The notes: generated by a model not told the origin, from the sequence alone. A DNA stretch of 64,000 nucleotides from a virus (IMGVR_UViG_3300027741_002766:1-64000), one strand, 5' to 3'; positions 16,655 to 42,854 are shown, counted from the first letter of the stretch. Numbers and translations are program-made.

Positions 16655-18259
16655 TTATTGCACAGTGGTCAGCCCTCGTTTGATAAGTGCATAACTGGCC
16701 AGCCAGTCCCATTCGTAACTTTTTTTCAGGGCCGCAAAGTCTCCCCTGACTTGATCATAATATTCCATAGCGTCTTGCGCACCTTTTGAACTCCAATGTC
16801 CCACGCTGTGATCCACATCAAGCCAAACCTTTAATCTATATTCATTTTCTACGTCAGGCAAACTGGCTCGCAGTTTGAGTGCTTCTCGAAATGCTGTGCG
16901 CCAGGCAATCCAAGCGGAATCCAAGTACGTGGCCTCACCTGACAGCACAGGCACTACTTCGTGTGGTTGGTCCAGTGTAAAATCCAGGCCCAGACCTTGA
17001 TTTTGCAATACCAGTTGTTTGTTGTAGGCAATCATGCCTTGATGTCCATATTCCAAATCATTAATGGTATTTCGTGCATGAAAGATATAGTGCTTGGCCG
17101 CTTGCAAGCGATCAGGCTGCCACGTCCAATCAAAGTGTTGATCGACCTTGAGTTTGGCCCACACAGCAAAGTACCAAGCAGTGGTACTGGCCTTGGCTGC
17201 CGCATGTTGACTTGCCACACGACCTGTTATGCCTTGTACCCAATGTATCCTGTTGAGACTGGAGTTCATGTTGGCCATTGTTGCTGATTCCAACCATCTA
17301 AAGTTTGCATGTGCATCTTTTTCGCCATTTGAAATAAACACAATGTCCAGGGGTTGTTCTCGGAGCATACGATGTGTTTTGTCTATGTGCGGATAATCAT
17401 AGATCTGAGTCCTGATATAGTTCTTGCACTCTCTTGGCACTATGGCAGTGGCATGTCCTTGGCTCAGAGGTACCACAGTCTTGGTGGATTCTTGCCATAG
17501 ACTCACAGTGGGCACATGATTGCTCATGGGTACTGTTTGATAGAACTCAACCAAGGGAGTGTCAAATTCATGCCGCCACACTGCTGTCACCAGACTGTCA
17601 TCTGTGTATTGTATACAGGGCATGGGCAGTCTTGGCACTGATTGATCAACAAAGTTCAGTGTCTCAAACCATTCCAATATTTTTAGATTTTTGGTTTTGG
17701 CCAGAAAACTGGGCACATGTACATAGAACGTATCCCCAAACTTTTGTTCATTGCTGGCAAACACATGAAGCATGCTCTGTTGCCATTCGCTGGGGTGCCA
17801 GGTGAAATCAAAGTCAGCGTAATCACAAACATCGCTGGTGACCCAACAATATTCCCACTTGACTCGACTCAGTGCCCTACGCATGGTACCCAGATAATCA
17901 CTTACGTAACGCACATTAACATCACCTGAGTCCGCACTGGTAGGAGTGTGTTTGATATGCAAGCGTGGCACACCAAGTCGGCGTGGTACCACAGGGTGTG
18001 ATCTGTTTACATGCTCATATTTACGTGGCACCAGAGCAGTTCCACCGTTCTCCTGGTGCTGACTGGGCCACACATGCATTTGGTCGCTTTCCCAAGGCAC
18101 AGGTTCCCAAAGAAAATCAAACTCACTATAGTCCGATAAGTAATTTATCCACCAGAAATATCTAGTACGGCTTTGCTTCTGTGCCGCCTCAATTGAATCC
18201 ACTCCACGCTCATGCGGAAATAGATTGGGCTTGATACCTGTATAAAATACATCAAACAT
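16655..18259 (-). CDS. multi-domain glycosyltransferase-like protein
   Basis: Repeated FDFxWxP..W units; C-terminal domain paralogous to 39778..40704 (FISNGE...AWRTAFRE). Confidence 0.6.
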   Translation of the reverse strand: MFDVFYTGIKPNLFPHERGVDSIEAAQKQSRTRYFWWINYLSDYSEFDFLWEPVPWESDQMHVWPSQHQENGGTALVPRKYEHVNRSHPVVPRRLGVPRLHIKHTPTSADSGDVNVRYVSDYLGTMRRALSRVKWEYCWVTSDVCDYADFDFTWHPSEWQQSMLHVFASNEQKFGDTFYVHVPSFLAKTKNLKILEWFETLNFVDQSVPRLPMPCIQYTDDSLVTAVWRHEFDTPLVEFYQTVPMSNHVPTVSLWQESTKTVVPLSQGHATAIVPRECKNYIRTQIYDYPHIDKTHRMLREQPLDIVFISNGEKDAHANFRWLESATMANMNSSLNRIHWVQGITGRVASQHAAAKASTTAWYFAVWAKLKVDQHFDWTWQPDRLQAAKHYIFHARNTINDLEYGHQGMIAYNKQLVLQNQGLGLDFTLDQPHEVVPVLSGEATYLDSAWIAWRTAFREALKLRASLPDVENEYRLKVWLDVDHSVGHWSSKGAQDAMEYYDQVRGDFAALKKSYEWDWLASYALIKRGLTTVQ

Positions 18260-19415
18260 GATTAGAATAGACGAAATTTACGAAAATACATTTTTACCCT
18301 GGGTAAGAAAAAATTTATCAGCAACTTCAATTTCTTACTGTGACCCATTTGGACGAAGTGATCCTGACAGTATTGTGTGTAGACAGTCTGATGATAGCCA
18401 AAATAAACAAAATGTAATTTTTTTCTTTGATCAAGAACCTATACAACCCAGTGTGCATTTGCCAACTTTTTATACTTTCCATCTCAGTACCGATCCATCA
18501 ACAACACAGAAGAGATTTTTAGTTACCAGTGAGACCAACAGTGACAATGTAGATTATATATGCAAAGTGTATGGATTGCAACCTTTTTATTATTTTTTTC
18601 ATGGCTGGGCCGCACTAGACTGGTTTAGAGGATACAATCAAACCTTTTTGATCACATTACCCGAACAGCGAAATATCAAAAAAACTTTCTTTAGTCCAAA
18701 TAGAATCATTGGCGGAGAACGCAGTCATCGTGTGCTACAGTTGTACTTTTTCCAATTGTTTGATCTCATGCACAATCACATTAGTGCTCCGTTGACATGT
18801 CCTGTAGAAAATAAAACTATTATTGAATTGGCCAGATTTTATCAACACAAATATCCTGACAACTTCAATCCCAGGGGAACTTCATATGCAGGTGGCATAG
18901 TAGAAACTGTAGCCAAGATGGCATTGCCTAGAATGTTTCCTGGAGAAGACACACAACGCATGAGCAGTTGTTGGCTGGACCAATTTGATCTCTGTGCCGA
19001 GAGCATGATATATCATGTGAGCGAAACTGTGTTTTTTGGTCGCAGACAACATTTGACTGAAAAAACTTTCAAGCCCATTGCACTAGGCATGCCTTTTGTT
19101 TTGAGCGCACCAGCAGGCAGTTTGGCATATCTTCGACAGTACGGGTTTAAAACATTTGATTCCGTTTGGGATGAGTCATATGATGCTCAACCACATGATG
19201 AGAGACGAGTCACAGTATTGACCAGACTACTGGCAGATCTTGACAAAAAAACTCTGACTGAAAAAAATGATATTTTTCAAAAATGTATTCCCATAATTCA
19301 ACACAATTGGAATCATTTTTACAACGGAGGATTTGAAAAAATATTATGGGCAGAATTGACCTCAATGCTCGACAACCTCAAGGCAGCGGCGCAAGGTGAT
19401 TTATCTAGCAATTGA
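18258..19415 (+). CDS. TEK-motif glycosyltransferase-like protein
   Basis: VSET...LTEKTFKPI...PF...GFKTF..WDESYD. Confidence 0.6.
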   Translation: MIRIDEIYENTFLPWVRKNLSATSISYCDPFGRSDPDSIVCRQSDDSQNKQNVIFFFDQEPIQPSVHLPTFYTFHLSTDPSTTQKRFLVTSETNSDNVDYICKVYGLQPFYYFFHGWAALDWFRGYNQTFLITLPEQRNIKKTFFSPNRIIGGERSHRVLQLYFFQLFDLMHNHISAPLTCPVENKTIIELARFYQHKYPDNFNPRGTSYAGGIVETVAKMALPRMFPGEDTQRMSSCWLDQFDLCAESMIYHVSETVFFGRRQHLTEKTFKPIALGMPFVLSAPAGSLAYLRQYGFKTFDSVWDESYDAQPHDERRVTVLTRLLADLDKKTLTEKNDIFQKCIPIIQHNWNHFYNGGFEKILWAELTSMLDNLKAAAQGDLSSN

Positions 19416-20580
19416 TCACAGAGATCCAGAGACGGGCCGGGCCATGCCCAATGGGATTCCACTGGACCAACATCATCTAATTGAGCAAATGGATGGATAT
19501 AGACTGGACTATCCAAGGATCATTTATTACCTACATCAGTGTCACATACCTCAACAGATAGTGGCCACTGTGGATGCTCCTGCTGGTGCTTGGTATCCTG
19601 TGGTATTAGGATGGTTTGATTTTTCAGCGGACTATCTTGCCATGATCAGTGCAGAGGCACATGCTCGAATACAACAAAAACTCATGCGCCTGGTGTTCAC
19701 CTATCATGAAGGTGATAACCCTGCCCACATGAGAGCAAGAATCAATCAACTGTGTGCAGATCATGCCATAGATCCCGAACAGGTCTGGTTGATCAGTGGT
19801 AATACATCAGCAGATTCAGTACCAGGATGTGTATACTGGCCAGAACTGGAGTTTATGTACTGGCGTAGTGTGGATAGATCAGCAGGAGCCAAATATCACA
19901 ATCATCCAAGATCACGTGCGTTTACTGGCCTATGTAGAATAGACAAACTATGGCGCAAGGTATTCATGAGTGAACTATGGGCCAACAATCTACACCTGAA
20001 TGGTTACTTTAGTTATAATCAGTATCTGCTAGGAGGGGAAGACAACTATTTCAACTGTGCATTGCGAAATAGTTATCTTGCTCATAAACAACATCAAGTG
20101 AATCAGTTCATTGCCGCAGGACCTTTTTGTGTGGATCAACTGGATTCAGATGAGCACAACAACTATGCTGCCAACATGACTGAACTGTATGAAGATAGTT
20201 ATTTCAATATTGTGCTTGAGACCATGATTGATGTGGACAATTCAGGTGGACAATTTTTGACAGAAAAAACGTTCAAACCCATATTCAACAATCAGTTTTT
20301 TGTGGCAGTTAGTAGCCACAATCACATGGCACACCTACGTGAACTAGGGTATAGGTCTTTTGGTCGTGTGATAGATGAACACTATGACACAATAGATAAC
20401 AATCAAGAAAGATTTGAATCAGTGCTGGCTTTGACCAAGAGTTTGTGTGCTCGACCTCTAACAGAGTTGCATGAGATTTATCAACAGTTACAGCCCGAGA
20501 TTTCTCACAATCACCAGGTTTTTGTGGCAGGTATGCGACATAGACTACTATCAGTAGTTGATTGCGTTAATAGATCCTGA
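19396..20580 (+). CDS. TEK-motif glycosyltransferase-like protein
   Basis: SYFNIVLET...LTEKTFKPI. Confidence 0.6.
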   Translation: MIYLAIDHRDPETGRAMPNGIPLDQHHLIEQMDGYRLDYPRIIYYLHQCHIPQQIVATVDAPAGAWYPVVLGWFDFSADYLAMISAEAHARIQQKLMRLVFTYHEGDNPAHMRARINQLCADHAIDPEQVWLISGNTSADSVPGCVYWPELEFMYWRSVDRSAGAKYHNHPRSRAFTGLCRIDKLWRKVFMSELWANNLHLNGYFSYNQYLLGGEDNYFNCALRNSYLAHKQHQVNQFIAAGPFCVDQLDSDEHNNYAANMTELYEDSYFNIVLETMIDVDNSGGQFLTEKTFKPIFNNQFFVAVSSHNHMAHLRELGYRSFGRVIDEHYDTIDNNQERFESVLALTKSLCARPLTELHEIYQQLQPEISHNHQVFVAGMRHRLLSVVDCVNRS

Positions 20581-21590
20581 ATCTGCATTTTTACAGTTAC
20601 AATCTCATCATTGTATAGTTTTGGCAGTTGCTGCCAAAACCATTCATGGTTATGTACTATTTTGGGCCAAACGTGTTGTTTAATTTTTGTTAGTTCCGCC
20701 AAACTTAAATCGCATAGCCTTTGTGTTTCTTTCAGCAGGTGTTCGAATCTCAGTTGTGGATTTTCTATCTGGTCATAACTTTCGTCTAACACATCCTCAA
20801 ATGTCTGAAACCCTAAACTGAGAAGTTTATCAAGGGCACCTGCGGAACTGAATAACAAAAAAGGGTGACCGTATGCCAATGGTTTCATACATTTTTCCGT
20901 GAAAAATGCATCAAAGTTTTCGTTTATATATGTTTCATTTACAAAAGATACACATGTATGCTGATAAAAAAAGATCTCACCAATGGACCAATCATTGGTA
21001 CCGGCAAATTGATCTGATGGTATTTTCATTGGTAACATTTGATAAATTTTTTCTAAATCAAGACCTTGATTGAACCATGTATCACCAATGATTCCATTGG
21101 TTTGGTCGTAAATACCTTTTACACCATCACCAAATCGATCAGTACACCAATAACTGAAATAAAAATCATCTAGCAAATTAAATTTTACTAAAAATTGCAT
21201 CAATGCTTGTCTATTCCATTGTGCTCGATTGTTCAATGATAGAAACTTTTTTTTCAGATCATCTGAATGATCGTACAAGTTGCTGTATACTAAATTGTTT
21301 GAATAATATGCATAAGCATATTTCAATTTGATGAACTTACAATTGTACTTTTGTTCTAGTTCCGTTGTGGGGTAATCTCGATGAACAATTAATATTGTAA
21401 AACTATCTTTAAAATATTCAAGAGTCTCTATCACCTGGGGCAGATTAAACGCTTCACCAAAGCAGGAATAAATTACCATTGGTTGTTTTTTGTAATTTTT
21501 AATTTCTCCATGATAATTTGAACAAACCAAAACGTCCGAGGATGCAAACTCGGCGATTTCTTTATAGGGATCGGGCTGTATTACGAGCAT
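20511..21590 (-). CDS. TEK-motif glycosyltransferase-like protein
   Basis: FVNET...FTEKCMKPL..HPF...DESYD. Confidence 0.6.
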   Translation of the reverse strand: MLVIQPDPYKEIAEFASSDVLVCSNYHGEIKNYKKQPMVIYSCFGEAFNLPQVIETLEYFKDSFTILIVHRDYPTTELEQKYNCKFIKLKYAYAYYSNNLVYSNLYDHSDDLKKKFLSLNNRAQWNRQALMQFLVKFNLLDDFYFSYWCTDRFGDGVKGIYDQTNGIIGDTWFNQGLDLEKIYQMLPMKIPSDQFAGTNDWSIGEIFFYQHTCVSFVNETYINENFDAFFTEKCMKPLAYGHPFLLFSSAGALDKLLSLGFQTFEDVLDESYDQIENPQLRFEHLLKETQRLCDLSLAELTKIKQHVWPKIVHNHEWFWQQLPKLYNDEIVTVKMQIQDLLTQSTTDSSLCRIPATKTW

Positions 21591-23059
21591 ACCTTTACAC
21601 CGTATAACTTTTCAAAACGATCTGCGTCAGCACGATCATTCACCATGGGTTCACCGCGTATGTTTAAACTGGTGTTGAGCAACATAGGACACCCTGTCAA
21701 CACATACCACTTCTCTAGCAGTTGTCTGATGCCTGAACCGTCTCGCGCCACCGTTTGTACTCGACTGGAGCCATCAACGTGACAAATAGCAGGAGTAAGG
21801 TCAGGCTGGCGACAACGAGCGACTGACTGCATATAAGGACTATGATGCCAACCCACTGGCATATCAAAATACTGGTCAGCCACCTCAGCCAGTATGACCG
21901 GGGCGAATGGCCTGAACTGTTGTCTACGTTTGATTGCATTTACTTGCTCCTTGATCTCGCTGCCTCTAGGGTCTGCAAGGAGGCTACGGTTTCCCAGTGC
22001 TCTGGGGCCGAACTCGGCTCTGCCTGAGGCAACTCCAACAATTCGTTCAGTAAGAAGCCGATCCAAAAGGCCATTAACGGGATAAGGGCCAGGAATATCA
22101 TGCCCCAGAAAAGCGTTTCGCCAGTTAACTCTATGCCCATGAGCCAAAGCGGCAGCACCAAGGCTAGAGCCGGCGTCACCAGGGCAAGGCATAATCCAAA
22201 TATTCGCAAAGTATTCTCCTAAAAAACGATTGGCACTGCAATTCAGCGCCACTCCACCCATATATACCAGATTCTCGCTAAAACCTAGATTCCTAGCACG
22301 AATCATTACTTGTCTGATAAGATCCTCTGCTACCATTTGTCCGGCTGCCGCAATGTTTTCGTCGCTGGAATATTCCAGAAACTCCTGACTCATGCCTGTG
22401 TGAAAGTTGTGTCGCAAACGCAGTTCACGTTCGTCTGCTATCACGTGTTCACGCATGTCATGATACCAGATGTTCCGGCCCCATGCAGCCATGCCCATGG
22501 TAATGTATTCTTCGTCCAGTGGATGTAGGCCCACACGCTGAGTAACTGCACTATAGAACAGGCCAATTGAGTGTGGATAGACCTGACGCCACAGTCTCTT
22601 GTACTTGGCCCGTCCCGATCGATCATATTCTGCATCCCATATGCTTATGGTGTCCCACTCACCTATGGCATCAATTACTATCACAGTGGCACGTTCAAAC
22701 GGTGAGGTCTGAAAGCCCGCTGCCGCATGCGATAGATGATGATTGTAACTGTGTACACGTTCAGGTTCAATTTGACCGCCCAATTGCCGTTGTAATATTT
22801 GCCGGGTGGTAATTTTATCCCATTCAATGCCTTGGCCTGCGTACCATTGTCTGAATTGTTTGTTCCAAGGGCGTTCATAGTAGGCCACCGTTTCGGGACC
22901 ATACTCCGAGACTTCATCTAGCAAGCCCTGACAAAAGTCAGCGTCATTTTTCTTTTTTGAATAACGTTCACTATGGCCAGCAAACAGAATCTCGCCGTCA
23001 GGTGAGATCACTGTGGCGGCTGCATCATGAAAGCCCGCAGAGATACCTAAGATATTCAT
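21581..23059 (-). CDS. carbamoyltransferase (NodU/CmcH/TobZ family)
   Basis: FHDAAA, ERYS, HHLSHAA, DAIGE, GGVALN, GDAG, EFGPRALGNRS, FRPFAP, LNTSLN. Confidence 0.95.
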   Translation of the reverse strand: MNILGISAGFHDAAATVISPDGEILFAGHSERYSKKKNDADFCQGLLDEVSEYGPETVAYYERPWNKQFRQWYAGQGIEWDKITTRQILQRQLGGQIEPERVHSYNHHLSHAAAGFQTSPFERATVIVIDAIGEWDTISIWDAEYDRSGRAKYKRLWRQVYPHSIGLFYSAVTQRVGLHPLDEEYITMGMAAWGRNIWYHDMREHVIADERELRLRHNFHTGMSQEFLEYSSDENIAAAGQMVAEDLIRQVMIRARNLGFSENLVYMGGVALNCSANRFLGEYFANIWIMPCPGDAGSSLGAAALAHGHRVNWRNAFLGHDIPGPYPVNGLLDRLLTERIVGVASGRAEFGPRALGNRSLLADPRGSEIKEQVNAIKRRQQFRPFAPVILAEVADQYFDMPVGWHHSPYMQSVARCRQPDLTPAICHVDGSSRVQTVARDGSGIRQLLEKWYVLTGCPMLLNTSLNIRGEPMVNDRADADRFEKLYGVKVCS

Positions 23060-23157
23060 TTGTAAATAAACGGGTCGCGTTTGCGCAACTCTTTTAATTT
23101 TTTACGATAACGAATCTCTAGTGTGATTCTTGACCAAAGTCTGCCAATCCAATTCAT
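23056..23157 (-). CDS. 33-aa basic peptide ending DPFIYK
   Basis: MNWIGRLWSRITLEIRYRKKLKELRKRDPFIYK; coupled to the carbamoyltransferase. Confidence 0.75.
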   Translation of the reverse strand: MNWIGRLWSRITLEIRYRKKLKELRKRDPFIYK

Positions 23158-23693
23158 TTAGATTTCTCCTTGTGATATTTGTCAAAAGTATTTTGACGTC
23201 TTACTACTACATCATTGTAGTGTTGCGTTGACCAATTGCTGTAATAATCTGTTTTTAGCAACATTAAATGTCCATCAATAACGTCACTTAATTTATTGAT
23301 TATTACTATAAAATACGGCCGATTAGAAAACAATCCCGGATATTGACTGTGACTACCAACTGCTTTACCATACTGCAAATAATAATCGTATGGAATAGTT
23401 TGTTTGTTCAAATACTTGATCCACCATTTAATTGGATAGAACCAACGAACATGATGCGGGAAAACTAGAATTCTTGTATTCAACTTATTACCGTCAATGA
23501 GATTCTGTGTTTGAGTTTTTATAAATTGCTTAATACCACCACTGACGTAAACTTTTACATCTAATAGTTGTTGTAATCTAGCCGCCCGAGCAAACGGACA
23601 CGGAGGAAATTTATAATTATAAAATGCATGTGGTTTTTCTACGTAATTTTTTACCCAATTCCAGATGTCTTGTTCTATATTGAGTTTAATCAT
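23154..23693 (-). CDS. hypothetical protein with CPFA motif (DUF1415-like)
   Basis: W...PPCPFARAA; AT-rich. Confidence 0.55.
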   Translation of the reverse strand: MIKLNIEQDIWNWVKNYVEKPHAFYNYKFPPCPFARAARLQQLLDVKVYVSGGIKQFIKTQTQNLIDGNKLNTRILVFPHHVRWFYPIKWWIKYLNKQTIPYDYYLQYGKAVGSHSQYPGLFSNRPYFIVIINKLSDVIDGHLMLLKTDYYSNWSTQHYNDVVVRRQNTFDKYHKEKSK

Positions 23694-23793
23694 AGATATA
23701 AGGATCTTTATCTCTGAGTTTTTTTAATCGTCGGGTACGACGATACTGTATTTCTAGTGTGATTCTTGCACAAAGTCTTTTGACCCAATTCAT
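23686..23793 (-). CDS. 35-aa basic peptide ending DPYIYD
   Basis: MNWVKRLCARITLEIQYRRTRRLKKLRDKDPYIYD; paralog of 23056..23157. Confidence 0.7.
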   Translation of the reverse strand: MNWVKRLCARITLEIQYRRTRRLKKLRDKDPYIYD

Positions 23794-34026: not shown

Positions 34027-34028
34027 GT

Positions 34029-34934
34029 CTATAATCTTTTAATCTTTTGATTTTGTGCAAATTTAAATTTATCACCTAATTTGTATTTTTCAAGCCAAAG
34101 CACGGTATACTCAGAAATCACAATTTCTGGGGCAACTTTTTGCAAATACTCCAGGTGTTCAACAGGTGTTGGATGATAATTTCTTTCAATTTCAAAAAAA
34201 TCAAAAGGAAATATCTCTTTGATTTCTTGAAGTATTTTGTCTTTGTGTTTTGTATACCAATTTATATCACATGCTTGTTCAAAAGTTGGCCAATCGGGTC
34301 CGGCACATGATTCATATCTTTTTTTAAATTCTTTGTTCTTGGGCCCAACTAATTTTTTAGAGAAATCACTCTTTCTGCTGGTCCATTCATAATCAAAAAT
34401 AATTTCCAAGTAACTGGGGCATATTTTATCTAGCACATCCGAATACAACTCAATCACATCCGGGTGCTCGGTCTGATTCAGACCGAGCATGTTGAACTCA
34501 ATTGGTACTACAGAGAAAAAGTTATATTTGCATCCAATGTTTTTTAGTATTACATCAGTTGCTTTCATCATTGCCAGATCTCTGATCAAACAGCCGCGTT
34601 CAGTGACAAATTCATTGACCCAGGATTTGGGGTAAATTGTTGAGGTAAAAATATTTCCTGGTCTCAACCACGAATCATTTAGGTAACGATCTTCTCTTGT
34701 GACATTTGCCCAACATATCATCACAGTATCATCTTTGTTGATGTGATTTCTCTGATGGCACTCTATTAGACTGTTGAATATATAATGATTCCCGGTTCCG
34801 GGTTTGCCCCAATTTTCAAAATAGTCATATTCTCGTGCCACAATGTCGGCCCAGGTGGGCCACTGATACTCAGTAAAACTACATCCAAAGGCAAAAAATC
34901 TTTTGTTGTTCATATTGTTCGCTATCATTTGCAT
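34029..34934 (-). CDS. SGNH-like protein (tandem copy B)
   Basis: FGCSFT..WPTWAD, GTGN, YHPT. Confidence 0.7.
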   Translation of the reverse strand: MQMIANNMNNKRFFAFGCSFTEYQWPTWADIVAREYDYFENWGKPGTGNHYIFNSLIECHQRNHINKDDTVMICWANVTREDRYLNDSWLRPGNIFTSTIYPKSWVNEFVTERGCLIRDLAMMKATDVILKNIGCKYNFFSVVPIEFNMLGLNQTEHPDVIELYSDVLDKICPSYLEIIFDYEWTSRKSDFSKKLVGPKNKEFKKRYESCAGPDWPTFEQACDINWYTKHKDKILQEIKEIFPFDFFEIERNYHPTPVEHLEYLQKVAPEIVISEYTVLWLEKYKLGDKFKFAQNQKIKRL

Positions 34935-35818
34935 TATAATCTTTTGACTTTTTGATTGTGTGCAAACTTAAAATTATCACCTAATTTGTAATCATTGATC
35001 CAGTTCACAGTGTCTCTAGAAATAGAGATTTTGGGTGCAACTTTTTGCAAGTACTCCAGGTGTTCAACAGGTGTTGGATGATAATCTCTTTCAACTTCAA
35101 AAAAATCAAAAGGAAATATCTCTTTGATTTCTCGTATTATACTGTGTTTATGCCCGACATACCAATTTATATCACATGCTTGTTCAAAAGTTGGCCAATC
35201 GGGTCCGGCACATGATTCATATCTTTTTTTCAAGTTCTGGTGTTTGGACTCAATTAGTTTTTTGGAAAAATCACTCTTTCTGCTGCCCCAATTGTAATCA
35301 AAAATAATTTCCAAGTAACTGGGGCATATTTTATCTAGCACATCCGAATACAACTCAATCACATCCGGGTGCTCGGTCTGATTTTTATTGGTCATGTTGA
35401 ACTCAATTGGTACTACAGAGAAAAAGTTATATTTGCATCCAATGTTTTTTAGCAATAGATCAGTTGCTGTCATGAATGCTAAATCTCTGATCAAGCAGCC
35501 ACGGTCAGTGACAAATTCATTGACCCAGGATTTGGGGTAGACTGCTGTGGTAAAGATATTTCCGGCTGCCAACCACGAATCATTTAGGTAACGATCTTCT
35601 CTTGTGACATTTGACCAACATATCATCACAATATCATCTTTGTTGATGTGATTTCTCTGATGGCACTCAATGAGGCTATTGAATATATAATGATTTCCAC
35701 TTCCAGCATTGCCCCAATTTTCAAAATAGTCATACTCTCGTGCCACGATGTCGGCCCAGGTAGGCCACTGGTACTCAGTAAAACTACATCCAAATGCAAA
35801 AAATCTTTTGTTGTTCAT
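34934..35818 (-). CDS. SGNH-like protein (tandem copy A)
   Basis: FGCSFT..WPTWAD, GSGN, DYHPT; near-identical to its neighbour. Confidence 0.7.
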   Translation of the reverse strand: MNNKRFFAFGCSFTEYQWPTWADIVAREYDYFENWGNAGSGNHYIFNSLIECHQRNHINKDDIVMICWSNVTREDRYLNDSWLAAGNIFTTAVYPKSWVNEFVTDRGCLIRDLAFMTATDLLLKNIGCKYNFFSVVPIEFNMTNKNQTEHPDVIELYSDVLDKICPSYLEIIFDYNWGSRKSDFSKKLIESKHQNLKKRYESCAGPDWPTFEQACDINWYVGHKHSIIREIKEIFPFDFFEVERDYHPTPVEHLEYLQKVAPKISISRDTVNWINDYKLGDNFKFAHNQKVKRL

Positions 35819-35821
35819 GAT

Positions 35822-36691
35822 TCATTGATTCTTGTCTATGTCTAGTTCATACTGTGTTAACATATTTTCAACAGTATTTCTATCAAATCCAATCTCATTG
35901 AGAAAATAAATAAATTCAGTCAAATCTTTGCCCAGTCTGCAGACATCCCTATGTATGCCAAACGTTCTCATATTTGGCCAAGTATGGACGTCGGTCAATG
36001 TTGATTTGTCCAAATTTCTTTCAGTATTCCAAAAAGTTACATTGGGCACTGATCGAGATTGCAATTGATTTCCTGCATATTGTGAGAAAATAGAGTATAA
36101 GAAAATTTCACTAGACCACCACTCTTTTTTGTCAAAAAACAAAGCCAGGATGTCATGCTTGACAATTTCTCGAACGATGGCAGTATCAACCATAAACGGG
36201 GTTGACGAATTATATACCTTTTTGGGAATAGGTATGTTATTTGAAATACAAAATTTATCAATCTCAACCCAACCTCTATTATCGTAGTCTTCAACAATGC
36301 CGTTGCCATCTGTTATTGGCCAATCATCCAACAACTGCGGATGCACAAAAAAGTTTTTGCTGTCCAGCATGAGATATTTCTCTGATTGAACTTTGGTGGC
36401 GGCCAACAGTTTCAGCACTGCCGATCGGTGCCAGCCATTTTTTCTACGGGAATCATTTGCATAACAGTCCGGCGGTAACAAAGAGTTGCCTGCTATCAAG
36501 TGCAGCCGATGATGTGTGTAGTAAGGACTCAAGGTATCATACCAGGCCTGTAAACCAAGTTGATTGTCCTCAATGAGGATATAATGATCGCAAGGCGCTG
36601 TCAACATCAAATCTATGCTGTAAGATTGCAACTGTTGTATGCCACGATCTCTTGTGCAGGTCACTGTGACTAAATCTATATTGTTATGCAT
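35822..36691 (-). CDS. DUF6492-like putative glycosyltransferase
   Basis: VTCTRD, GW....LKL, LDSKN, TPF, SEIFLY. Confidence 0.6.
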   Translation of the reverse strand: MHNNIDLVTVTCTRDRGIQQLQSYSIDLMLTAPCDHYILIEDNQLGLQAWYDTLSPYYTHHRLHLIAGNSLLPPDCYANDSRRKNGWHRSAVLKLLAATKVQSEKYLMLDSKNFFVHPQLLDDWPITDGNGIVEDYDNRGWVEIDKFCISNNIPIPKKVYNSSTPFMVDTAIVREIVKHDILALFFDKKEWWSSEIFLYSIFSQYAGNQLQSRSVPNVTFWNTERNLDKSTLTDVHTWPNMRTFGIHRDVCRLGKDLTEFIYFLNEIGFDRNTVENMLTQYELDIDKNQ

Positions 36692-36784: not shown

Positions 36785-37759
36785 TCAGTCATAAAATACA
36801 TCAAAAGATGTATCTGTCATTTCTATCAGAACATTATAATTGTGTTCTAATATTGGTTTCATGTCATGATACATGGATTCCAACTCCACTGTGGACATTT
36901 TGCTTAGACTATTGATATTTCTTAAAATAGTGTTGATTCCTAATAGACCGCCATCTTCGTCATAACTTTCATCCCACCATTTGTCAAAAGTTTTAAATCC
37001 CAGTCGGTGTAGATTTTTTAAAAAATTCACTGGCCCCTGTATCATAAAAGGTGTTTGGCAGGCAAAAGGTCGCCAGGTTTTTTCGGTTGGATAAAAAGTA
37101 CGTCCTGCAGAATATGTTTCACAAACAATTTCTAAGAAAAATTTAGGATAATGTTTGTTTATTTCAAATTGAAGATCCGCAAAAACCGGCACTGTTGCAA
37201 CTGGTTCAATTTCAATCGGTGAGCAATTTAGCAATTGAACTATAGAGGAGAAATTGCACTGGCCGTTCAACTCGGTACACAATCTATCCATACCCAGATG
37301 CGATCTAAGAAAATCGTTTGTGGGATCGTACAAAAAGGTCTGTAGTGTTTTGTCTCTATATTCAGCAAACATCTCTGCTGAGATCCAAAGGCGTTGCCAA
37401 TTTGATCTTCTTATAAACAGTCCAAAATGTTTTATTTGATCAAAATCTTTTTTTATATAATTATGAGATTTGACAAATTGCTGAATTTGAGACACGTACA
37501 ATGGGGTAAGTTTTGTCACCTGATAGTGAGGATGTTTTTCCAATAGATTTCTTGTTTGTATAGTGACCAACTGTTTGTTTATATTGAATTTGTCGCACAC
37601 ATAATCCAACACCGAGTATAGTCCCAGTTCTGTGGCGTCGGGTCCTTCATCATTTAGATCAATTACAATTTTGCCCTGTGTTTGAAATTCATGTATGATG
37701 TCGGCTATCAAGAACTGTAAATTCCAGATATGTTGATCAATGTTTGGCATGTTAATCAT
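36785..37759 (-). CDS. TEK-motif glycosyltransferase-like protein
   Basis: FLEIVCET...PTEKTWRP...GFKTF..WDESYD. Confidence 0.6.
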   Translation of the reverse strand: MINMPNIDQHIWNLQFLIADIIHEFQTQGKIVIDLNDEGPDATELGLYSVLDYVCDKFNINKQLVTIQTRNLLEKHPHYQVTKLTPLYVSQIQQFVKSHNYIKKDFDQIKHFGLFIRRSNWQRLWISAEMFAEYRDKTLQTFLYDPTNDFLRSHLGMDRLCTELNGQCNFSSIVQLLNCSPIEIEPVATVPVFADLQFEINKHYPKFFLEIVCETYSAGRTFYPTEKTWRPFACQTPFMIQGPVNFLKNLHRLGFKTFDKWWDESYDEDGGLLGINTILRNINSLSKMSTVELESMYHDMKPILEHNYNVLIEMTDTSFDVFYD

Positions 37760-38463
37760 AGTAATTGTTTGATCGGTGGCAGTATTAGATCAGCAAATTC
37801 TTGGTAAACCTCTCTACTGGGATGTGTTTTGTCTTCGTCCCAAGAGTTGCGTTTTTCAGCAAGATCCAGTATGTAATGATCGGTATAAGCCCGGCTCCAG
37901 TCCACAAGATTACGTAAATGACTGTAACGATCCAGTATGCGAAATGGGCGACCAAACACAAACAAGTAGGGTATTCTTTTGATTTGCAAAAAACTTTGTA
38001 GACTTATCAATTTCATAGTGGCATGATACATGTGTTCACTGGGCCCAGCATAACGATAAAATCCTCCAAAGGCATCATTGAGTGCAGTGTCTTGGTCGCC
38101 ACAGGTTGATATGCCGCAGCCAAATATCCAGTTGCGTTCAACATAATCTTGATCGTTTATGGGCTCTACAATTTTTTCAGGCCAATCGTTTTGTCGATGT
38201 TGATGTTCACTGGTGAATATAGTTCCAGCAAATTGTGAGATATCTTGAACTTTGTAATCAAAACGTATGAATGGTGTCCATTGTATCAGTACCAAGTCAT
38301 AGTGTCTTTGCGCCAGTTCGGCAATGGTGGTTTCATGTACGTAATTATTGCCTGCACCACTTTGACTTAGATTAACCAAGTTGGCTTGCAATTCAGACTC
38401 AATGAAATAGGGCCATGATCCTGGTCCTCGGCTTAGACTTCCACCATTGGCTAGTATTTTCAT
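37756..38463 (-). CDS. SGNH-like protein
   Basis: NGGSL, GAGN, DKTHPS. Confidence 0.6.
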   Translation of the reverse strand: MKILANGGSLSRGPGSWPYFIESELQANLVNLSQSGAGNNYVHETTIAELAQRHYDLVLIQWTPFIRFDYKVQDISQFAGTIFTSEHQHRQNDWPEKIVEPINDQDYVERNWIFGCGISTCGDQDTALNDAFGGFYRYAGPSEHMYHATMKLISLQSFLQIKRIPYLFVFGRPFRILDRYSHLRNLVDWSRAYTDHYILDLAEKRNSWDEDKTHPSREVYQEFADLILPPIKQLL

Positions 38464-39539
38464 TGATAAAATTCCGTTAACATACTGCGTGATATTTTGC
38501 CTGCGCTGTTCACTGGTATTGTATCTACTTGTAAGACCAGTTTGGGACTGCAATGCGAATCGATGTCATTGATGGCTTGTCGCACCTGTTGTTCAGTGGC
38601 TGTGCCAGTGTACACACACATCACGCGATTTTTTCCAAAAACTGCCGCTTGCGCAATGCCTGGCACATTGTTGTACAATTGATTTTCAATACTGAGAGGA
38701 TCTATCTTGTAACCACGAATGTCAATTCTGTCTTTTTGTCGTCCAATGATTTTGTAGTAGCCTGCTGAATCTTGATCAGCAATATCTCCTGTGGCAAACC
38801 AACCGGTTATATGAACACTCGGGCCTTGTATTTCTAGTTCTCCGTTGACAATCCTTGCTTGTATGCCTGACGGCAAGCCCACTGTACCAATTCGCTGTTC
38901 TCCGTGCAATGGATTGGTGAAACAGTGACTACAGGCTTCTGTCATGCCAAATGCTTCAATTACCGGACGTTTGCTCCAGGCTTTTAAATCATTGTACAAT
39001 TGATCTGGTAACGCACTGGATGCTGACCTAACAAAACGCAAGTCAGGAAAATGTTGTCGCATGAACAGTCTTAAAAAATCTGGTATAGCACTAATTATAG
39101 TAGGGCTAAAATCAATCGAACTGCGTAAGTCATGTGGCTTGATATAGGTCACTTCGCATTTGGCTTGTTGTGCGGCCCAGTACATGCCTAAGCCGTGTGC
39201 ATGCCATAGCGGCATGATGCTTAGGTAACGATCATTATGATCAATTTCGTAGGCAGTACAAATTGTTCTAGCCAGTGCATCCAACTGCGTTTGAGAGAAA
39301 CTACAAAACTTACTGTCTCCAGTGGTGCCCGATGTATACCACAGCGCCGAATCTGAATAATCCCCACCCGAGCGTTGTGTTGTACCTGTGTCAGTGACCA
39401 ATAATGAATAATCAGAGTTGTCTAGTAAGTACTTTAATCTGTCTGTAGTTGTAGACGGATTGACAATCATGATACTATAATTTCGATATTGGGGAATATA
39501 CAGTTCAGGATTTTCTACGCATAAAACCACTCTTTTCAT
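38460..39539 (-). CDS. AMP-dependent ligase (acyl-CoA synthetase-like adenylation enzyme)
   Basis: YTSGTTGDSK, FGMTE, WFATGD, GR.KD, NSAGKI. Confidence 0.9.
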   Translation of the reverse strand: MKRVVLCVENPELYIPQYRNYSIMIVNPSTTTDRLKYLLDNSDYSLLVTDTGTTQRSGGDYSDSALWYTSGTTGDSKFCSFSQTQLDALARTICTAYEIDHNDRYLSIMPLWHAHGLGMYWAAQQAKCEVTYIKPHDLRSSIDFSPTIISAIPDFLRLFMRQHFPDLRFVRSASSALPDQLYNDLKAWSKRPVIEAFGMTEACSHCFTNPLHGEQRIGTVGLPSGIQARIVNGELEIQGPSVHITGWFATGDIADQDSAGYYKIIGRQKDRIDIRGYKIDPLSIENQLYNNVPGIAQAAVFGKNRVMCVYTGTATEQQVRQAINDIDSHCSPKLVLQVDTIPVNSAGKISRSMLTEFYQ

Positions 39540-39542
39540 GTG

Positions 39543-39776: not shown

Positions 39777-39777
39777 A

Positions 39778-40704
39778 TTACCATCCTTCTTGTGTTCTAA
39801 TTACATCAATCTCCCGAACCATGACACCTTGATTATGCCAGTTGCTACGATAGTGATGTTTAAAAAATCTGCTGGCTTCGGCTGTGAGCATGTGCATGGG
39901 CAAGTCAAGTTGTATGGCCAGATCATCTGCCAAGCGATTAGCAATAATTTCAGGTTGATCGTTCTCCACTGTCTTGAAAAGTTCAGCCAAGGCCTCAAAG
40001 TTTTGTACCTGTGTGTAATCCCAGTTGGTGAGCATGGTCATGTATGTGCCTTGACGTGCGCCAGCAATGGCCCAGTAGCCATAGTCTACATCACCGCCCA
40101 CATTGTGCCATATGGTCAAGTGATCTAGATTTCTCTGATGTACACGATCACGAAATTCACTTGCAGTGGGCCGTGCTCCGCGATTCAAACACATTTTGAC
40201 ACCTTCGCGGAATCCGGCACGCCAGGCCTGGAATGCTGAACCATTGGGATAGGTTACACTATAACAGTCATGCATGCTCCAGTAAAGCGGATCAAAACAA
40301 AATTCCACTTGTGTTTCTGTTGTGCCATCTGTGTTTTCATGTGTGCGCATGTTCATCACGTGCTCACGAGTCCATGAACTCAAGCCACCATTGCCATACA
40401 TCAATCCGTTGACATGATTACGTGCTCGCCAGCGGAACACAGCCTTTTCATATTCAGGTGTAGAAAGATCAAGCGTTTGGTTAAAAAACGCTGGGTCGGG
40501 GAGATTATCTCCATCCACGAGGATAAATCGCTCGGTGTCAGAAGCCCGGGCTGCGGCTTTATGTGCCGCATCGCTTCCACGTATATTGCTGACCCGTCGG
40601 GCCCAAGGCACCATGTTCTTAATCTTGACCCAAAATTCTTCTTGTTGCGGTTCATCATAACTTAGGTAAATGCAGTCCAAATCTGCTATGTCAATCTTGC
40701 TCAT
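39778..40704 (-). CDS. GT-A-like putative glycosyltransferase
   Basis: YLSYDE, AHKAAA, VDGD (DxD), YGNGG, AWRAGFREG. Confidence 0.6.
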   Translation of the reverse strand: MSKIDIADLDCIYLSYDEPQQEEFWVKIKNMVPWARRVSNIRGSDAAHKAAARASDTERFILVDGDNLPDPAFFNQTLDLSTPEYEKAVFRWRARNHVNGLMYGNGGLSSWTREHVMNMRTHENTDGTTETQVEFCFDPLYWSMHDCYSVTYPNGSAFQAWRAGFREGVKMCLNRGARPTASEFRDRVHQRNLDHLTIWHNVGGDVDYGYWAIAGARQGTYMTMLTNWDYTQVQNFEALAELFKTVENDQPEIIANRLADDLAIQLDLPMHMLTAEASRFFKHHYRSNWHNQGVMVREIDVIRTQEGW

Positions 40705-41032
40705 GTTGTTTTGGTTTCCATCTTTGATGAAGTTCTCCTGGACCAACTACCACAGCCGCATCATTGATGTGGCAAGGTGTTCCTTGATCACTGGGTACCA
40801 GTTTAGGTGGCATGGGTCGGGCACGTGGTTTTAACACACCATCAATCACACGCACCTGCAGGTCCTGTAGTGCAAACTGTTCAGGGGAGACTTCAATATA
40901 CTTACCGGGCTGATCCTCGTGGCTGTAAAACAATGCTCGGCCCAAATCATCATAGTACAGTCTGTAGTAAACGGTCTTCTCTCGGGGCCACTCAATGGCC
41001 TTCCAAAAATCCAAAAACTCTTGTTCATTCAT
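40691..41032 (-). CDS. hypothetical protein
   Basis: Coupled ORF in the operon. Confidence 0.75.
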   Translation of the reverse strand: MNEQEFLDFWKAIEWPREKTVYYRLYYDDLGRALFYSHEDQPGKYIEVSPEQFALQDLQVRVIDGVLKPRARPMPPKLVPSDQGTPCHINDAAVVVGPGELHQRWKPKQHEQD

Positions 41033-41759
41033 GTCGCCAATCCTTCACATGATAGTGTACTGCACCCCATTGGGTCACTGTGTTAAATCTTAGCGGATTG
41101 TTTTCCCACACCAATTCCTGCGTCCAGTTGTATGTTTGAGTTGGGATCATATGGCGTTTCATGTGTACTATTCTTGGATACGTGGCAAATGGCAAGGTAA
41201 CCAGTTCAGGTCCTATGATCTGTGCGGCCATGGCATACACTAGATCGGTAGAAGCCTCTTCATCTGGAAACTTCAACAAGGTTCGGTACTCAGTCCAATT
41301 TTCAAATATATTACGCACCAGTCGAAAGAAGTCTTGTGCTGTTGGGCTCACACGCCAGTATGTGATAGCATTGTACACGTCGGGCAGGTGATTGGCATCG
41401 AACACTTTTCTATAGAACCTACTTTCAGCAGGTTGGTCATAAAAGTCCCTAGCACCTGTGGATATCACAAGGTCTCTGTGTTCGAGCATGGTCCACCAAT
41501 GATCAACGGGACTGGCTATGATCATGTCTGCTTCTAGTTTGATAGTTTGTCTGTAGGGACTGGCCGCAAAGCACTGCCAATCATTAGCAAACCCACCTTG
41601 ATCTCCATTGGGTAACTGTTCCTTGGTTAGTATGGTTATGTTGGCTTCAGGATGATGTTGGCGTATGCTGGCAGCCAACTGATCAGCACAGGACACATAG
41701 TCTGTTGTGTCAGTGTTGACAGCCGGTATGAGGTAACCACGTTCAGCGAGAATTGGCAA
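41025..41759 (-). CDS. GT8-like putative glycosyltransferase
   Basis: SPYRQTIKLEAD, HMK, HYH; paralog of the adjacent gene. Confidence 0.6.
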   Translation of the reverse strand: MPILAERGYLIPAVNTDTTDYVSCADQLAASIRQHHPEANITILTKEQLPNGDQGGFANDWQCFAASPYRQTIKLEADMIIASPVDHWWTMLEHRDLVISTGARDFYDQPAESRFYRKVFDANHLPDVYNAITYWRVSPTAQDFFRLVRNIFENWTEYRTLLKFPDEEASTDLVYAMAAQIIGPELVTLPFATYPRIVHMKRHMIPTQTYNWTQELVWENNPLRFNTVTQWGAVHYHVKDWRHE

Positions 41760-42549
41760 CTATGTCTCCCAAGTGCTTTTTGCCCATGGCATGAAAAGAT
41801 GTGCCGGCCCAGGCTATCTTTTTGGGACGTTTGTCATCTATATATTCAATTTGAAAGAAGTCTTCATCCAGTTGAGTAAGTGTGTGCTCGGGCATGACAC
41901 TGGCCAGGCGGAATGGTATGTTGTCTACTTGTAAAGTATGACCACTCACAATGCCCAAGGCAATACTGAGTGCATAGTCATTGCGATAGTTAGAGCCAGT
42001 AATGTGATAGAGATCTTTGTAGTGGCGCCAGTTGTTTTTGATCATGTTCATTGAATCAAAAATGTATTGTGCTGTGTTTGATTTTCTAAACATCATCACA
42101 GTAGCCCACCACATGGGCATGCGATTGGCACCAAACCAGTTGAGACCATCAAAGTCATTCATGCTGGTCATGTCCCAGGCAAGTCTATGGCACATGAAAT
42201 CTTGTGGGCTTTCGATTACAGTCTTTAACTCCGTGCCGCACACCACATAGTCAGCGTCTAATACTAGAGTTTGGTCCCAAGGCGAGAGTCGATATGCATC
42301 AGTTCTACCTGCGTTGTGCCAAGACACAGTCGCTTGATAATCCTCAAACCAACGTGTTCCTCCGGAAACTGGCGCCGCATTAATGACTTGATCTGCACCG
42401 ACAAGTCGTGGATCTGTTGGATCTGCGTCTGTGACGATGGCCACTGGAATGTTGAGGTGCCTATGAATTCGTTTAGCACTCCACCCAGCCATAGCAACGT
42501 AGTCGGTTTGTTCATTGTCAAACGCAAATATCAATGCGCCTGTGGTCAT
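41743..42549 (-). CDS. GT8-like putative glycosyltransferase
   Basis: SPWDQTLVLDADY (DxD), RNDYA, HAMGK. Confidence 0.65.
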   Translation of the reverse strand: MTTGALIFAFDNEQTDYVAMAGWSAKRIHRHLNIPVAIVTDADPTDPRLVGADQVINAAPVSGGTRWFEDYQATVSWHNAGRTDAYRLSPWDQTLVLDADYVVCGTELKTVIESPQDFMCHRLAWDMTSMNDFDGLNWFGANRMPMWWATVMMFRKSNTAQYIFDSMNMIKNNWRHYKDLYHITGSNYRNDYALSIALGIVSGHTLQVDNIPFRLASVMPEHTLTQLDEDFFQIEYIDDKRPKKIAWAGTSFHAMGKKHLGDIVANSR

Positions 42550-42854
42550 CGCTTGCGACTCTGTTCTTCATATTCTACCAGCCAGGCATTCATTTGTTCT
42601 TGCCAATGGCCATGTGCCCGAGCAAATAGTTCAGGCACATTCACACGCACGGGAGTCTCATACAAGTCTAACAACACAACATCCGTGTCTTGAGCACAAC
42701 TAAGTAGAGTACATTGTAAGTCAGGGCCTGCTCGCCACATGCCACCGCCATGAGCAAACAACATCCGGGCTTCGTACTTTTCTTTTAGTACACGTCGTGC
42801 GGCCACATGATCAAAACGTGCTCGTGCATGAGCAATTAGTGCATCGGTATTCAT
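42546..42854 (-). CDS. hypothetical protein, first gene of the modification operon
   Basis: 102-aa ORF directly after a promoter. Confidence 0.75.
   Translation of the reverse strand: MNTDALIAHARARFDHVAARRVLKEKYEARMLFAHGGGMWRAGPDLQCTLLSCAQDTDVVLLDLYETPVRVNVPELFARAHGHWQEQMNAWLVEYEEQSRKR

Follow-up and report, generated by a model that had tools for sequence, protein, structure and literature searches.

A conserved gene cluster of freshwater jumbo phages combining N-terminal-twitch radical SAM enzymes, glycosyltransferases and a carbamoyltransferase-linked micropeptide: a plausible pathway of glycan building and tailoring

Introduction

Several viruses are established to glycosylate proteins with enzymes of their own, including chloroviruses (capsid glycosyltransferases such as A64R of PBCV-1), mimiviruses (fibril glycosylation clusters) and mycobacteriophages (virion glycosylation). 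Here we describe a 26-kb operon (positions 16655-42854) located in the first 64 kb (64,000 nucleotides, hereafter the window) of a 108.7-kb IMG/VR phage record, IMGVR_UViG_3300027741_002766, estimated to be ~30% complete. This cluster brings together five radical S-adenosylmethionine (SAM) enzymes, six proteins of what we call the TEK family, a pair of GT8-like glycosyltransferases (GTs), SGNH-like proteins, an adenylating enzyme, the carbamoyltransferase g05 and a micropeptide. It resembles the viral glycosylation systems in that soluble viral GTs are encoded near structural genes, and the model of its product g25 matches A64R of chlorovirus PBCV-1 and R699 of mimivirus. To our knowledge, arrays of radical SAM genes, SGNH cassettes and a carbamoyltransferase paired with a micropeptide are features that none of these systems has, and the present cluster further differs from them in being known from genes and models alone. 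The reading that we favor, and to which we give about even weight, is that the cluster encodes a soluble pathway for building and tailoring a glycan, with a conserved core and swappable cassettes, acting most plausibly on virion proteins.

The host recognition cluster of pelagimyophages and cyanomyophages is a hypervariable island located by the tail fibers, in which GT8-type GTs are found along with radical SAM cassettes whose presence varies between close relatives (PMC7029224). Both islands lie beside tail-fiber genes of aquatic phages, T4-like ones in the published case, and associate GT8-type with radical SAM proteins. However, no family, order or function is given for the radical SAM genes of the host recognition cluster, whereas here they form a fixed five-member backbone in freshwater jumbo phages of ~345 kb. 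In the literature found, radical SAM cassettes of this sort receive no more than a passing mention (PMC7029224).

Several components of the cluster also have described counterparts. Like the members of NCBIfam family NF033640, all five phage radical SAM proteins carry a CxxxCxxC core after an N-terminal, Cys-rich SPASM/twitch-like module; NF033640 is a catalog entry only, whereas here five apparently old paralogs occur together in one phage. g05 has both Pfam domains of the TobZ/NodU/CmcH carbamoyltransferases well above their cut-offs, but is not a NodU ortholog, and a micropeptide gene always precedes it. This arrangement is reminiscent of SxtK/DUF5989-type small proteins, which are encoded beside an O-carbamoyltransferase as the phage micropeptide is beside g05. 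Similarly, in the DltX/DltB/DltD and PatA/PatB shuttles, a microprotein with an invariant Tyr near its C terminus accompanies a group-activating enzyme and SGNH-fold proteins; experiments have demonstrated the FXYXXF acyl-shuttle motif in DltX and in PatA, where it reads FIYANF (PMC12148441). The phage micropeptide differs from these shuttles in being soluble, in lacking both the membrane helix and the final xxF, and in having no MBOAT/AT3 partner. Finally, the TEK proteins resemble GT10 alpha1,3/4-fucosyltransferases by their predicted GT-B fold, with GT10 enzymes among the best structural matches of the modeled member g04, but differ from them in having no sequence-profile link.

Three very large families without function, namely NF033640, the TEK GT-B family and the carbamoyltransferase-linked micropeptide, meet in this one conserved operon, which is carried by abundant lake phages. 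Identification of its product would give chemistry to all three at once, and would reveal if radical-edited sugars decorate the virions of jumbo phages or another target. The question bears on host recognition, evasion of defense and new radical SAM reactions, and a minimal version in phage RsoM2USA makes it testable in culture.

Organization and conservation of the cluster

Open reading frame (ORF) calling yielded 26 protein genes in 16655-42854, most of which overlap their neighbors by 1-20 nt or abut them, in keeping with the coupling of genes described in an earlier note on this DNA. The total of ~28 genes given there has to be revised, since the 26 protein genes are joined by two predicted micropeptide genes, the first translationally coupled to g05, that the note had overlooked. 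Families in the window were defined by all-against-all BLASTP, alignments and purpose-built hidden Markov models (HMMs); Pfam, NCBIfam and PHROG were scanned, structural matches were sought in the PDB, and the ESM Atlas was also searched. ORFs, BLASTP and HMMs reproduced the positions and numbers of the families reported earlier (five radical SAM, six TEK, four SGNH-like and two GT8-like proteins), and Pfam and NCBIfam did the same for the DUF6492 protein, the adenylation enzyme and the carbamoyltransferase. The alternation of radical SAM with TEK or SGNH genes is likewise visible as g15-g14-g13-g12-g11-g10-g09-g08.

The closest relatives of this phage are many freshwater metagenomic contigs, several of which reach 342-353 kb and are 95-100% complete, consistent with genomes of ~345 kb. 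Synteny across related phages, proposed earlier as a check, proved to be strict: in ~80 related loci, gene order is fixed as g27-g26-g25-g24-g23-g22-slot-g15-g14-g13-g12-slot-g10-slot-g08-g07-slot, followed by peptide-g05-...-g03-g02-g01. The conserved backbone consists of g26-g22, g15-g14-g13-g12-g10-g08-g07, peptide-g05 and g03-g02-g01, while the slots between backbone genes are filled variably by TEK, SGNH and adenylase cassettes; in the window, the g16-g21 insert fills the g22-g15 slot. Within 10 kb of g12, five radical SAM genes are found in 55 loci (range over all loci 4-8); the loci as a whole contain 0-7 TEK genes, 0-3 SGNH-like genes and, in 70 cases, the GT8-like pair. Median identities amount to 67-81% for the cluster enzymes vs 52-55% for the adjacent fiber proteins.

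The backbone extends to a more distant phage contig, L089 (PBLX01000002.1, 42.7 kb), which was binned with the metagenome-assembled genome (MAG) 'Legionellales bacterium SP228'. L089 keeps a g24-like gene, g22, six radical SAM genes, g07, the micropeptide, g05, an SGNH-like gene and a g01-like gene; no TEK gene is detectable in its 42.7 kb, and its micropeptide gene is not adjacent to g05. Two other phage contigs (L087 and L088; NZ_JBBAKG010000003.1 and NZ_JBBAKG010000001.1, 148 and 183 kb) contain the whole cluster, with g12 at 89 and 79% identity, plus fiber genes. Both were binned with the Saprospiraceae MAG 'Haliscomenobacter sp. EUL_031', an assignment that may be a binning error or may point to the host.

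Of 50,697 GenBank phage records, that of Ralstonia phage RsoM2USA is the only one to encode a close radical SAM relative. This phage, the only cultured carrier, has a mini-module made of a radical SAM gene (ORF202), an SGNH-like gene (ORF201), a micropeptide gene and a carbamoyltransferase gene (ORF199). The products of ORF202 and ORF199 are annotated as hypothetical proteins only.

Five radical SAM paralogs with an N-terminal twitch-like module

The radical SAM genes of the window are as follows.

24820-26109 (-): g08, N-terminal-twitch radical SAM protein, CC subtype; NF033640 E 1.5e-82, 278 bits; own clade, support 100
26985-28187 (-): g10, N-terminal-twitch radical SAM protein; NF033640 E 2e-100, 336 bits; own clade, support 100
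28938-30200 (-): g12, N-terminal-twitch radical SAM protein; NF033640 E 2e-118, 396 bits
30181-31518 (-): g13, N-terminal-twitch radical SAM protein, SCxH subtype; NF033640 E 4e-86, 290 bits; clade support 100
32614-34026 (-): g15, N-terminal-twitch radical SAM protein, SCxH subtype; NF033640 E 4e-93, 313 bits; clade support 99

All five proteins are full-length members of NF033640 (N_Twi_rSAM), with scores of 278-396 bits for a curated cut-off of 170. The invariant cysteines of the five-paralog alignment are C8, C26, C79 and C82, then C132, C136 and C139 of the CxxxCxxC core. Pfam SPASM matches fall at residues ~8-97, ahead of the Radical_SAM match, thereby placing the auxiliary module at the N terminus. 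The twitch-like domain recognized in the earlier note is thus present, but its BtrN/NeoN-type placement is not, as the domain is C-terminal in those sugar enzymes; kinship to BtrN and NeoN was not borne out for this permuted family, which has no characterized member. No mention of an 'N-terminal twitch' domain was found in the literature searched. Similarity to solved proteins is weak; viperin (E 2e-5) comes first, followed by MoaA and BlsE, a cytosylglucuronate decarboxylase, and NCBIfam gave weak similarities to peptide-maturase-type enzymes.

In a maximum-likelihood tree (quick search) of the window genes, four relatives, the distant contig L089 and bacterial sequences, each radical SAM gene of the window belongs to a separate ortholog clade (support 99-100) made of one gene per each of the four relatives and one from L089, 45-58% identical. 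One-to-one ortholog clades that include so distant a phage argue for five anciently diverged paralogs whose roles are distinct and conserved. g13 and g15 form the deep SCxH subtype, composed only of phage sequences in the sample examined, and g13 is 52% identical to ORF202 of RsoM2USA. The g12 clade nests among bacterial sequences, and g12 itself shows the highest conservation in the cluster, at 77-90% identity across 80 viral loci. Bacterial NF033640 genes often occur in arrays of 2-5. Their neighbors (124 proteins from 25 loci) are heterogeneous, with PhyH and GH5, like GT2, represented four times each; no dominant partner emerges, so that gene context in bacteria does not point to a particular substrate.

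Glycosyltransferase folds in the cluster

Six genes encode TEK-family proteins.

18258-19415 (+): g02, TEK-family GT-B-like protein, on the strand opposite to the rest of the cluster
19396-20580 (+): g03, TEK-family GT-B-like protein, also on the opposite strand
20511-21590 (-): g04, TEK-family member chosen for modeling, predicted GT-B fold
26096-26995 (-): g09, TEK-family GT-B-like protein, in a variable slot that is filled in some relatives only (27-63% identity)
31515-32633 (-): g14, TEK-family GT-B-like protein of the backbone, with orthologs in 73 loci (40-89%), always between g15 and g13
36785-37759 (-): g19, TEK GT-B-like protein, cassette member

These proteins share a C-terminal ET...TEK..KP...DESYD domain; g02 and g03 match the TEK HMM at E 5e-69 and 4e-83, and the g03-g02-g01 order is conserved in relatives. 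The AlphaFold2 (AF2) model of g04, built from an alignment of 73 sequences, reached a mean predicted local distance difference test (pLDDT) score of 93.6 and a predicted TM score (pTM) of 0.90. When this model was compared with 48,161 PDB representatives in a VIA-wide fold search, the best 50 matches were GT-B glycosyltransferases without exception, and the alignments comprised 225-277 residues for 49 of them. Z scores were 10.6 for T4 beta-glucosyltransferase (BGT), 10.0 for the alpha1,3-fucosyltransferase of H. pylori and 9.6 for T4 alpha-glucosyltransferase (AGT), and the other GT10 enzymes FUT11, mango FUT13 and FUT9 followed at 9.4, 9.2 and 8.0; the matches to T4 BGT, T4 AGT, GT4 and GT10 enzymes are essentially tied. 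Foldseek also returned GT-B enzymes as top matches, OtsA among others (E 3e-4). The TEK family is predicted from this model to have a GT-B glycosyltransferase fold.

The ET...TEK motif, presumably a donor-side motif resembling that of GT10, served as a lead only. Pfam gave no match to 73 TEK-family members at E up to 0.01, and has no model of the family; for the six window proteins, no Pfam family was retrieved at E up to 10, including Glyco_transf_10 (PF00852). A TEK profile produced chance-level matches only against PDB sequences, with no GT10 chain, and g14 had no match in the GenBank phage records. Membership in GT10 was rejected for want of any Pfam or PDB sequence-profile link. The likeness to GT10 suggested earlier holds for the predicted fold and not for the sequence profile, and TEK is best described as a separate, unnamed GT-B family resembling GT10 in predicted fold and motif. 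This family comprises 13,583 clusters at 50% identity (E <=0.001), many of them tandem two-domain fusions. About one third of the best TEK relatives (P0121-P0270) are 650-1000 aa long with two matched stretches, corresponding to tandem GT-B fusions; one of these, P0126, is encoded in an NCBI record on a contig of 273 kb.

A second fold class is predicted for two adjacent paralogs.

41025-41759 (-): g24, predicted GT8-like retaining GT-A, paralog of g25
41743-42549 (-): g25, predicted GT8-like retaining GT-A

The AF2 model of g25 (pLDDT 92.1) matched glycogenin (VIA-wide Z 14.6 and 14.2), the Skp1 galactosyltransferase Gat1 (14.1), LgtC (13.8), GlyE (13.6) and UGGT (13.3), and, among viral proteins, PBCV-1 A64R (12.2) and mimivirus R699 (10.3). 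Foldseek found alpha3GalT, GlyE and glycogenin at E 4e-7, with 396 matches at <=1e-3. In the L-D-A-D motif of g25, L97, A99 and D100 are invariant, whereas residue 98, D in g25, corresponds to E in the g24 group. Hence, at the level of the model, g25 is a GT8-like retaining GT-A closest to glycogenin. The Pfam GT8 model did not match g24 or g25 at E up to 10, and a g24/g25 profile retrieved only NleB/SseK from PDB sequences, at chance level (E ~1). Both genes are present in 70 of 80 loci.

Two further proteins had been labeled GT-A-like.

39778-40746 (-): g22, core protein with a DGD motif, candidate GT-A, probable start at 40704
16655-18259 (-): g01, 534 aa, with three repeats of the FDFxWxP type and a g22-related C-terminal region

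g22 is kept in 71 loci at 71-94% identity and in L089 at 61%. Its ESM Atlas neighbors are all viral, one cluster being auto-named GT2-like, which is a lead only, and a profile of its family matches PDB sequences at chance level only. We do not call g22 a GT-A because hhalign finds no relation between its family and that of g25 (probability 2%). g01 is related to g22 (BLASTP E 6e-5; g22-HMM E 3e-7), has orthologs in 14 loci and in L089 (38%), and matches no Pfam or PHROG family. The GT-A-like label of the two proteins was not confirmed, as it comes down to the DGD motif and the auto-named neighbor, with no profile link to g25.

The carbamoyltransferase and its micropeptide

21581-23059 (-): g05, NodU/TobZ/CmcH-type carbamoyltransferase (Kae1-like N-terminal and YrdC-like C-terminal domains)
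23056-23157 (-): micropeptide copy 1, 33 aa, ending RKRDPFIYK, with a TGA stop overlapping the ATG of g05
23154-23693 (-): g06, 179 aa, phrog_28122 (E 2e-10), a family without function, between the two micropeptide copies
23686-23793 (-): micropeptide copy 2, 35 aa, ending DKDPYIYD

g05 matches Carbam_trans_C at E 2e-48 (165 bits, cut-off 27) and Carbam_trans_N at E 2e-34 (120 bits, cut-off 24), and has orthologs in 67 loci (44-89%). Orthology with NodU was rejected, the score being 137 bits for an equivalog cut-off of 1000. The micropeptide family, retrieved by jackhmmer of small ORFs, occurs in 75 loci, including 67 of the 67 that have a g05 ortholog; in 50 of these its stop overlaps the g05 start. 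Its 20 C-terminal residues (consensus EIRYRKKLKELRKRDPFIYK) are nearly invariant, although 3-7 synonymous codons are used per site, and selection therefore acts on the peptide and not on the RNA. The phage micropeptide is soluble, basic and devoid of a membrane helix; F30, I31 and Y32 are invariant, followed by K and the stop, and conserved Trp, Tyr and Phe residues are present. The micropeptide matches no Pfam family. Neither hmmscan of six micropeptides against Pfam nor a six-frame search of the whole record retrieved PF19451 (DUF5989) at E up to 10, and membership in the DUF5989/SxtK-type proteins was rejected on that ground. g06 is found in two relatives only (L019 and L020), where it is again flanked by two peptide genes, as if a cassette had been inserted behind the peptide gene along with a second copy of the peptide.

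In RsoM2USA, an unannotated micropeptide ending RKQDPFIYK (L086:14021-14143; MG752970.1, ~125891-126013, -) lies between ORF201 and ORF200, the latter preceding ORF199. Bacterial carbamoyltransferases also have such partners: in two of three carbamoyltransferase-bearing bacterial loci scanned, both from Bdellovibrionota MAGs (L139:4370-4513, -; L141:16406-16549, +), hydrophobic microproteins with PF[IV]Y tails, PFIYTVF and PFVYTLF, are encoded immediately ahead of NodU-type carbamoyltransferases, with NF033640 radical SAM genes in the vicinity. These microproteins carry the exact FXYXXF motif, whereas the phage micropeptide keeps F-I-Y without the final xxF.

SGNH-like and adenylating proteins

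28168-28941 (-): g11, SGNH-like/DUF6071-like protein, variable slot
34029-34934 (-): g16, SGNH-like protein, tandem duplicate in the variable region
34934-35818 (-): g17, SGNH-like protein, tandem duplicate in the variable region, 84% identical to g16
37756-38553 (-): g20, SGNH-like protein, probable start at 38463
38460-39539 (-): g21, short ANL adenylating enzyme, 359 aa; AMP-binding E 2e-28, 99.6 bits

The alignment of the four SGNH-like proteins shows invariant G15, S17, G48, G50 and N51, with GCS (GCSFT in g11) and GxGN blocks; block V reads D..HP in g11 and g20, and YHP in g16 and g17. Their Pfam matches are weak (Lipase_GDSL_2, E 0.013 and 0.17), and g11 alone matches DUF6071 with 27.0 bits, exactly at the cut-off. 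Such genes are detectable within 10 kb in 47 of 81 loci. g21 matches positions 167-366 only of the 384 of the AMP-binding profile, approximately the first 165 being absent; a length of 360-361 aa is kept in nine loci, and the short form is therefore not a truncation artifact. The g21-g20-g19 cassette (36785-39539) remains intact in nine loci.

A proposed glycan pathway and its alternatives

The candidate acceptors and the boundary that separates them from the enzymes are as follows.

42914-45112 (-): g27 and g28, fiber-like neighbors, non-enzymes, candidate acceptors; g28-g27-g26 order conserved
42895-42874 (-): terminator-like hairpin with a 9-bp stem and a T run, between g27 and g26
42889-42861 (-): sigma70-like promoter match (10/12), overlapping the hairpin (element pair 42861-42895)

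In the pathway that we favor, GTs would use host nucleotide sugars and build an oligosaccharide directly on the acceptor. Each of the five radical SAM orthologs would introduce one distinct edit of a sugar initiated by hydrogen abstraction, such as epimerization, oxidation, deoxygenation or C-C bond formation; g05 would make carbamoyl-AMP and add the carbamoyl group directly or via the micropeptide tyrosine; and the SGNH-like proteins, along with g21, would add or move acyl groups. The variable cassettes would diversify the product between phage strains. The acceptor would most plausibly be a virion protein, for instance the Ser/Thr-rich fiber-like g27 or g28.

Several lines of evidence are consistent with such a pathway. 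The models predict at least two GT fold classes in the cluster, GT-B for the TEK proteins and GT-A for the GT8-like pair; the earlier note had held that structure searches without GT folds would count against it, and their outcome speaks in its favor. None of the 26 cluster proteins has a hydrophobic segment reaching a Kyte-Doolittle mean of 1.6 over 19 residues, and no initiating transferase, flippase, polymerase, MBOAT or AT3 protein was found in the cluster; the chemistry is therefore expected to be cytoplasmic and soluble. The closest matches of the radical SAM cores, although weak, are to enzymes with nucleotide or nucleoside-sugar substrates (viperin, MoaA and BlsE). The family assignments and paralogy, the five one-to-one ortholog clades, the fixed order of backbone genes with variable cassettes, and the higher conservation of the enzymes relative to the fiber proteins are in line with the pathway as well. 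The cluster shares the orientation of the baseplate and fiber genes, which it follows directly downstream, and the best matches of g25 include the protein-directed enzymes glycogenin, Gat1, GlyE, UGGT and PBCV-1 A64R. Position, orientation and these matches favor a virion-protein acceptor, and the Ser/Thr-rich proteins said to be encoded next door are indeed there: g27 (327 aa) contains 31.8% Ser+Thr, and g28 (400 aa), which has virion-structural PHROG matches, 20%. Of the decorated-glycan pathway put forward earlier, the building and decorating part is a reasonable supposition from the predicted GT-B and GT-A folds, whereas its target and the sugar chemistry of the radical SAM enzymes are proposals.

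Other observations weigh against the proposed pathway. Pfam scans found no gene for nucleotide-sugar synthesis in the cluster. As NF033640 has no characterized member, sugar editing is a guess; twitch/SPASM enzymes act more often on peptides, and GTs account for a modest fraction of the neighbors of bacterial NF033640 genes (GT2, 4 of 124). g22 and g01, lacking a profile link, are candidate GT-As only. The terminator-like and promoter-like sites split the cluster from the fiber genes; both are consensus matches only, and the region overall is not enriched in terminators. Finally, the mini-module of RsoM2USA lies amid genes for DNA ligase, dihydrofolate reductase and dCMP deaminase, far from tail genes, and adjacency to fibers is therefore not universal.

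A peptide is one rival substrate. Mycofactocin pathways unite a peptide ending in Tyr with a radical SAM/SPASM enzyme and a GT2. The DPFIYK micropeptide could similarly be a scaffold or precursor that the radical SAM enzymes cross-link or edit and the GTs glycosylate, on Tyr for example, to give a glycopeptide or a mycofactocin-like small molecule. Twitch/SPASM radical SAM proteins are typically peptide maturases, to which those of the cluster bear weak NCBIfam similarities; the micropeptide is far more conserved than any enzyme, with selection at the protein level and conserved Trp, Tyr and Phe, and the best structural match of g25, glycogenin, glucosylates tyrosine. Yet in 67 of 67 loci the peptide gene is coupled to the carbamoyltransferase gene instead of one for a radical SAM enzyme, between 4 and 8 radical SAM genes occur while the micropeptide is constant, Pfam scans detected no PqqD/RRE-type domain in any cluster protein, and bacterial carbamoyltransferases have PF[IV]Y-tailed microproteins of their own. 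We regard this explanation as improbable. Remodeling of the host envelope, by which the enzymes would alter lipopolysaccharide (LPS), capsule or another surface glycan, for instance to block superinfection, also appears improbable. Modification of the host O-chain is the explanation favored for the GTs (mostly GT8) of the pelagimyophage host recognition cluster, which lie beside tail fibers along with radical SAM cassettes (PMC7029224). GT8 includes LPS enzymes such as LgtC, SGNH-mediated and carbamoyl modifications are common on surface polysaccharides, and the variability of the cassettes is like that of O-antigen loci. Nevertheless, the cluster is devoid of membrane proteins and of the partners expected for such a role, including an initiating phosphoglycosyltransferase; its backbone is highly conserved across phages with differing fiber proteins, and late surface conversion would be of little gain to a lytic jumbo phage.

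Hypermodification of DNA bases or nucleotides against host nucleases, through the GT-B, GT-A and tailoring enzymes, was the other alternative considered from the outset, and we now find it highly unlikely. T4 glucosylates hydroxymethylcytosine, and T4 BGT is the top structural match of the TEK model, with T4 AGT close by; moreover, the cluster abuts the thymidylate synthase gene thyX, the mini-module of RsoM2USA lies among DNA-metabolism genes, and the radical SAM cores resemble enzymes acting on nucleotides. However, the score of T4 BGT is tied with those of GT4 and GT10 enzymes, and, of the entry enzymes known for such hypermodification, neither a ThyA-family pyrimidine hydroxymethylase (PF00303) nor TGT/DpdA (PF01702) was detected in any of five relatives that are 95-100% complete, which speaks against the established routes and weakens this alternative. 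The neighboring ThyX is an ordinary one, encoded on the opposite strand and convergent with the cluster, which is itself co-oriented with structural genes.

Within the glycan-building pathway, a bolder proposal, rather unlikely in our opinion, is that the twitch-first radical SAM enzymes edit sugars, before or after their transfer, in five fixed steps and that the micropeptide is either a carrier of carbamoyl or acyl groups or a tyrosine primer for the GT8-like enzymes. As a carrier, the micropeptide would shuttle between the carbamoyltransferase or the adenylase and the SGNH-fold transferases; as a primer, its tyrosine would be the site at which the GT8-like enzymes start the glycan, as in glycogenin. 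If true, this would provide the first functions for the NF033640, TEK GT-B and DPFIY micropeptide families, and would reveal both an undescribed mode of viral glycoconjugate synthesis and a new kind of phage-made molecule.

Other cluster genes and genomic surroundings

23790-24827 (-): g07, conserved core protein, 345 aa, probable start at 24809
35822-36691 (-): g18, DUF6492 protein of the variable region; PF20102 E 3e-6, 27 bits, cut-off 22.9
40691-41032 (-): g23, conserved small protein, 113 aa, in 71 loci (36-80%)
42546-42854 (-): g26, conserved small protein, 102 aa, first gene of the cluster, in 57 loci (55-95% identity)

g07 has orthologs in 71 loci (40-81%) and in L089 (35%), and matches nothing in Pfam, PHROG, NCBIfam or the ESM Atlas; Pfam scans gave no family for g23 and g26, and g18 has no ortholog in the 80 related loci. 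The TTG starts called for g07, g20 and g22 are probably too far upstream.

To the left of the cluster are ten tRNA genes and genes for an ATPase, an HNH endonuclease and the flavin-dependent thymidylate synthase ThyX (+); a nucleotide search of this flank against the 50,697 GenBank phages returned no match. The window contains no T4 late promoter TATAAATA, with ~1.9 occurrences expected by chance. To the right, also on the (-) strand, are encoded the two Ser/Thr/Gly-rich fiber-like proteins, a 4175-aa virion protein and a gp6-like baseplate wedge protein. The 4175-aa ORF (45922-58449, -) matches the virion structural family phrog_10938 at E 1e-283, and, near residue 3650, contains a short stretch resembling head-closure and baseplate-hub lysozyme families.

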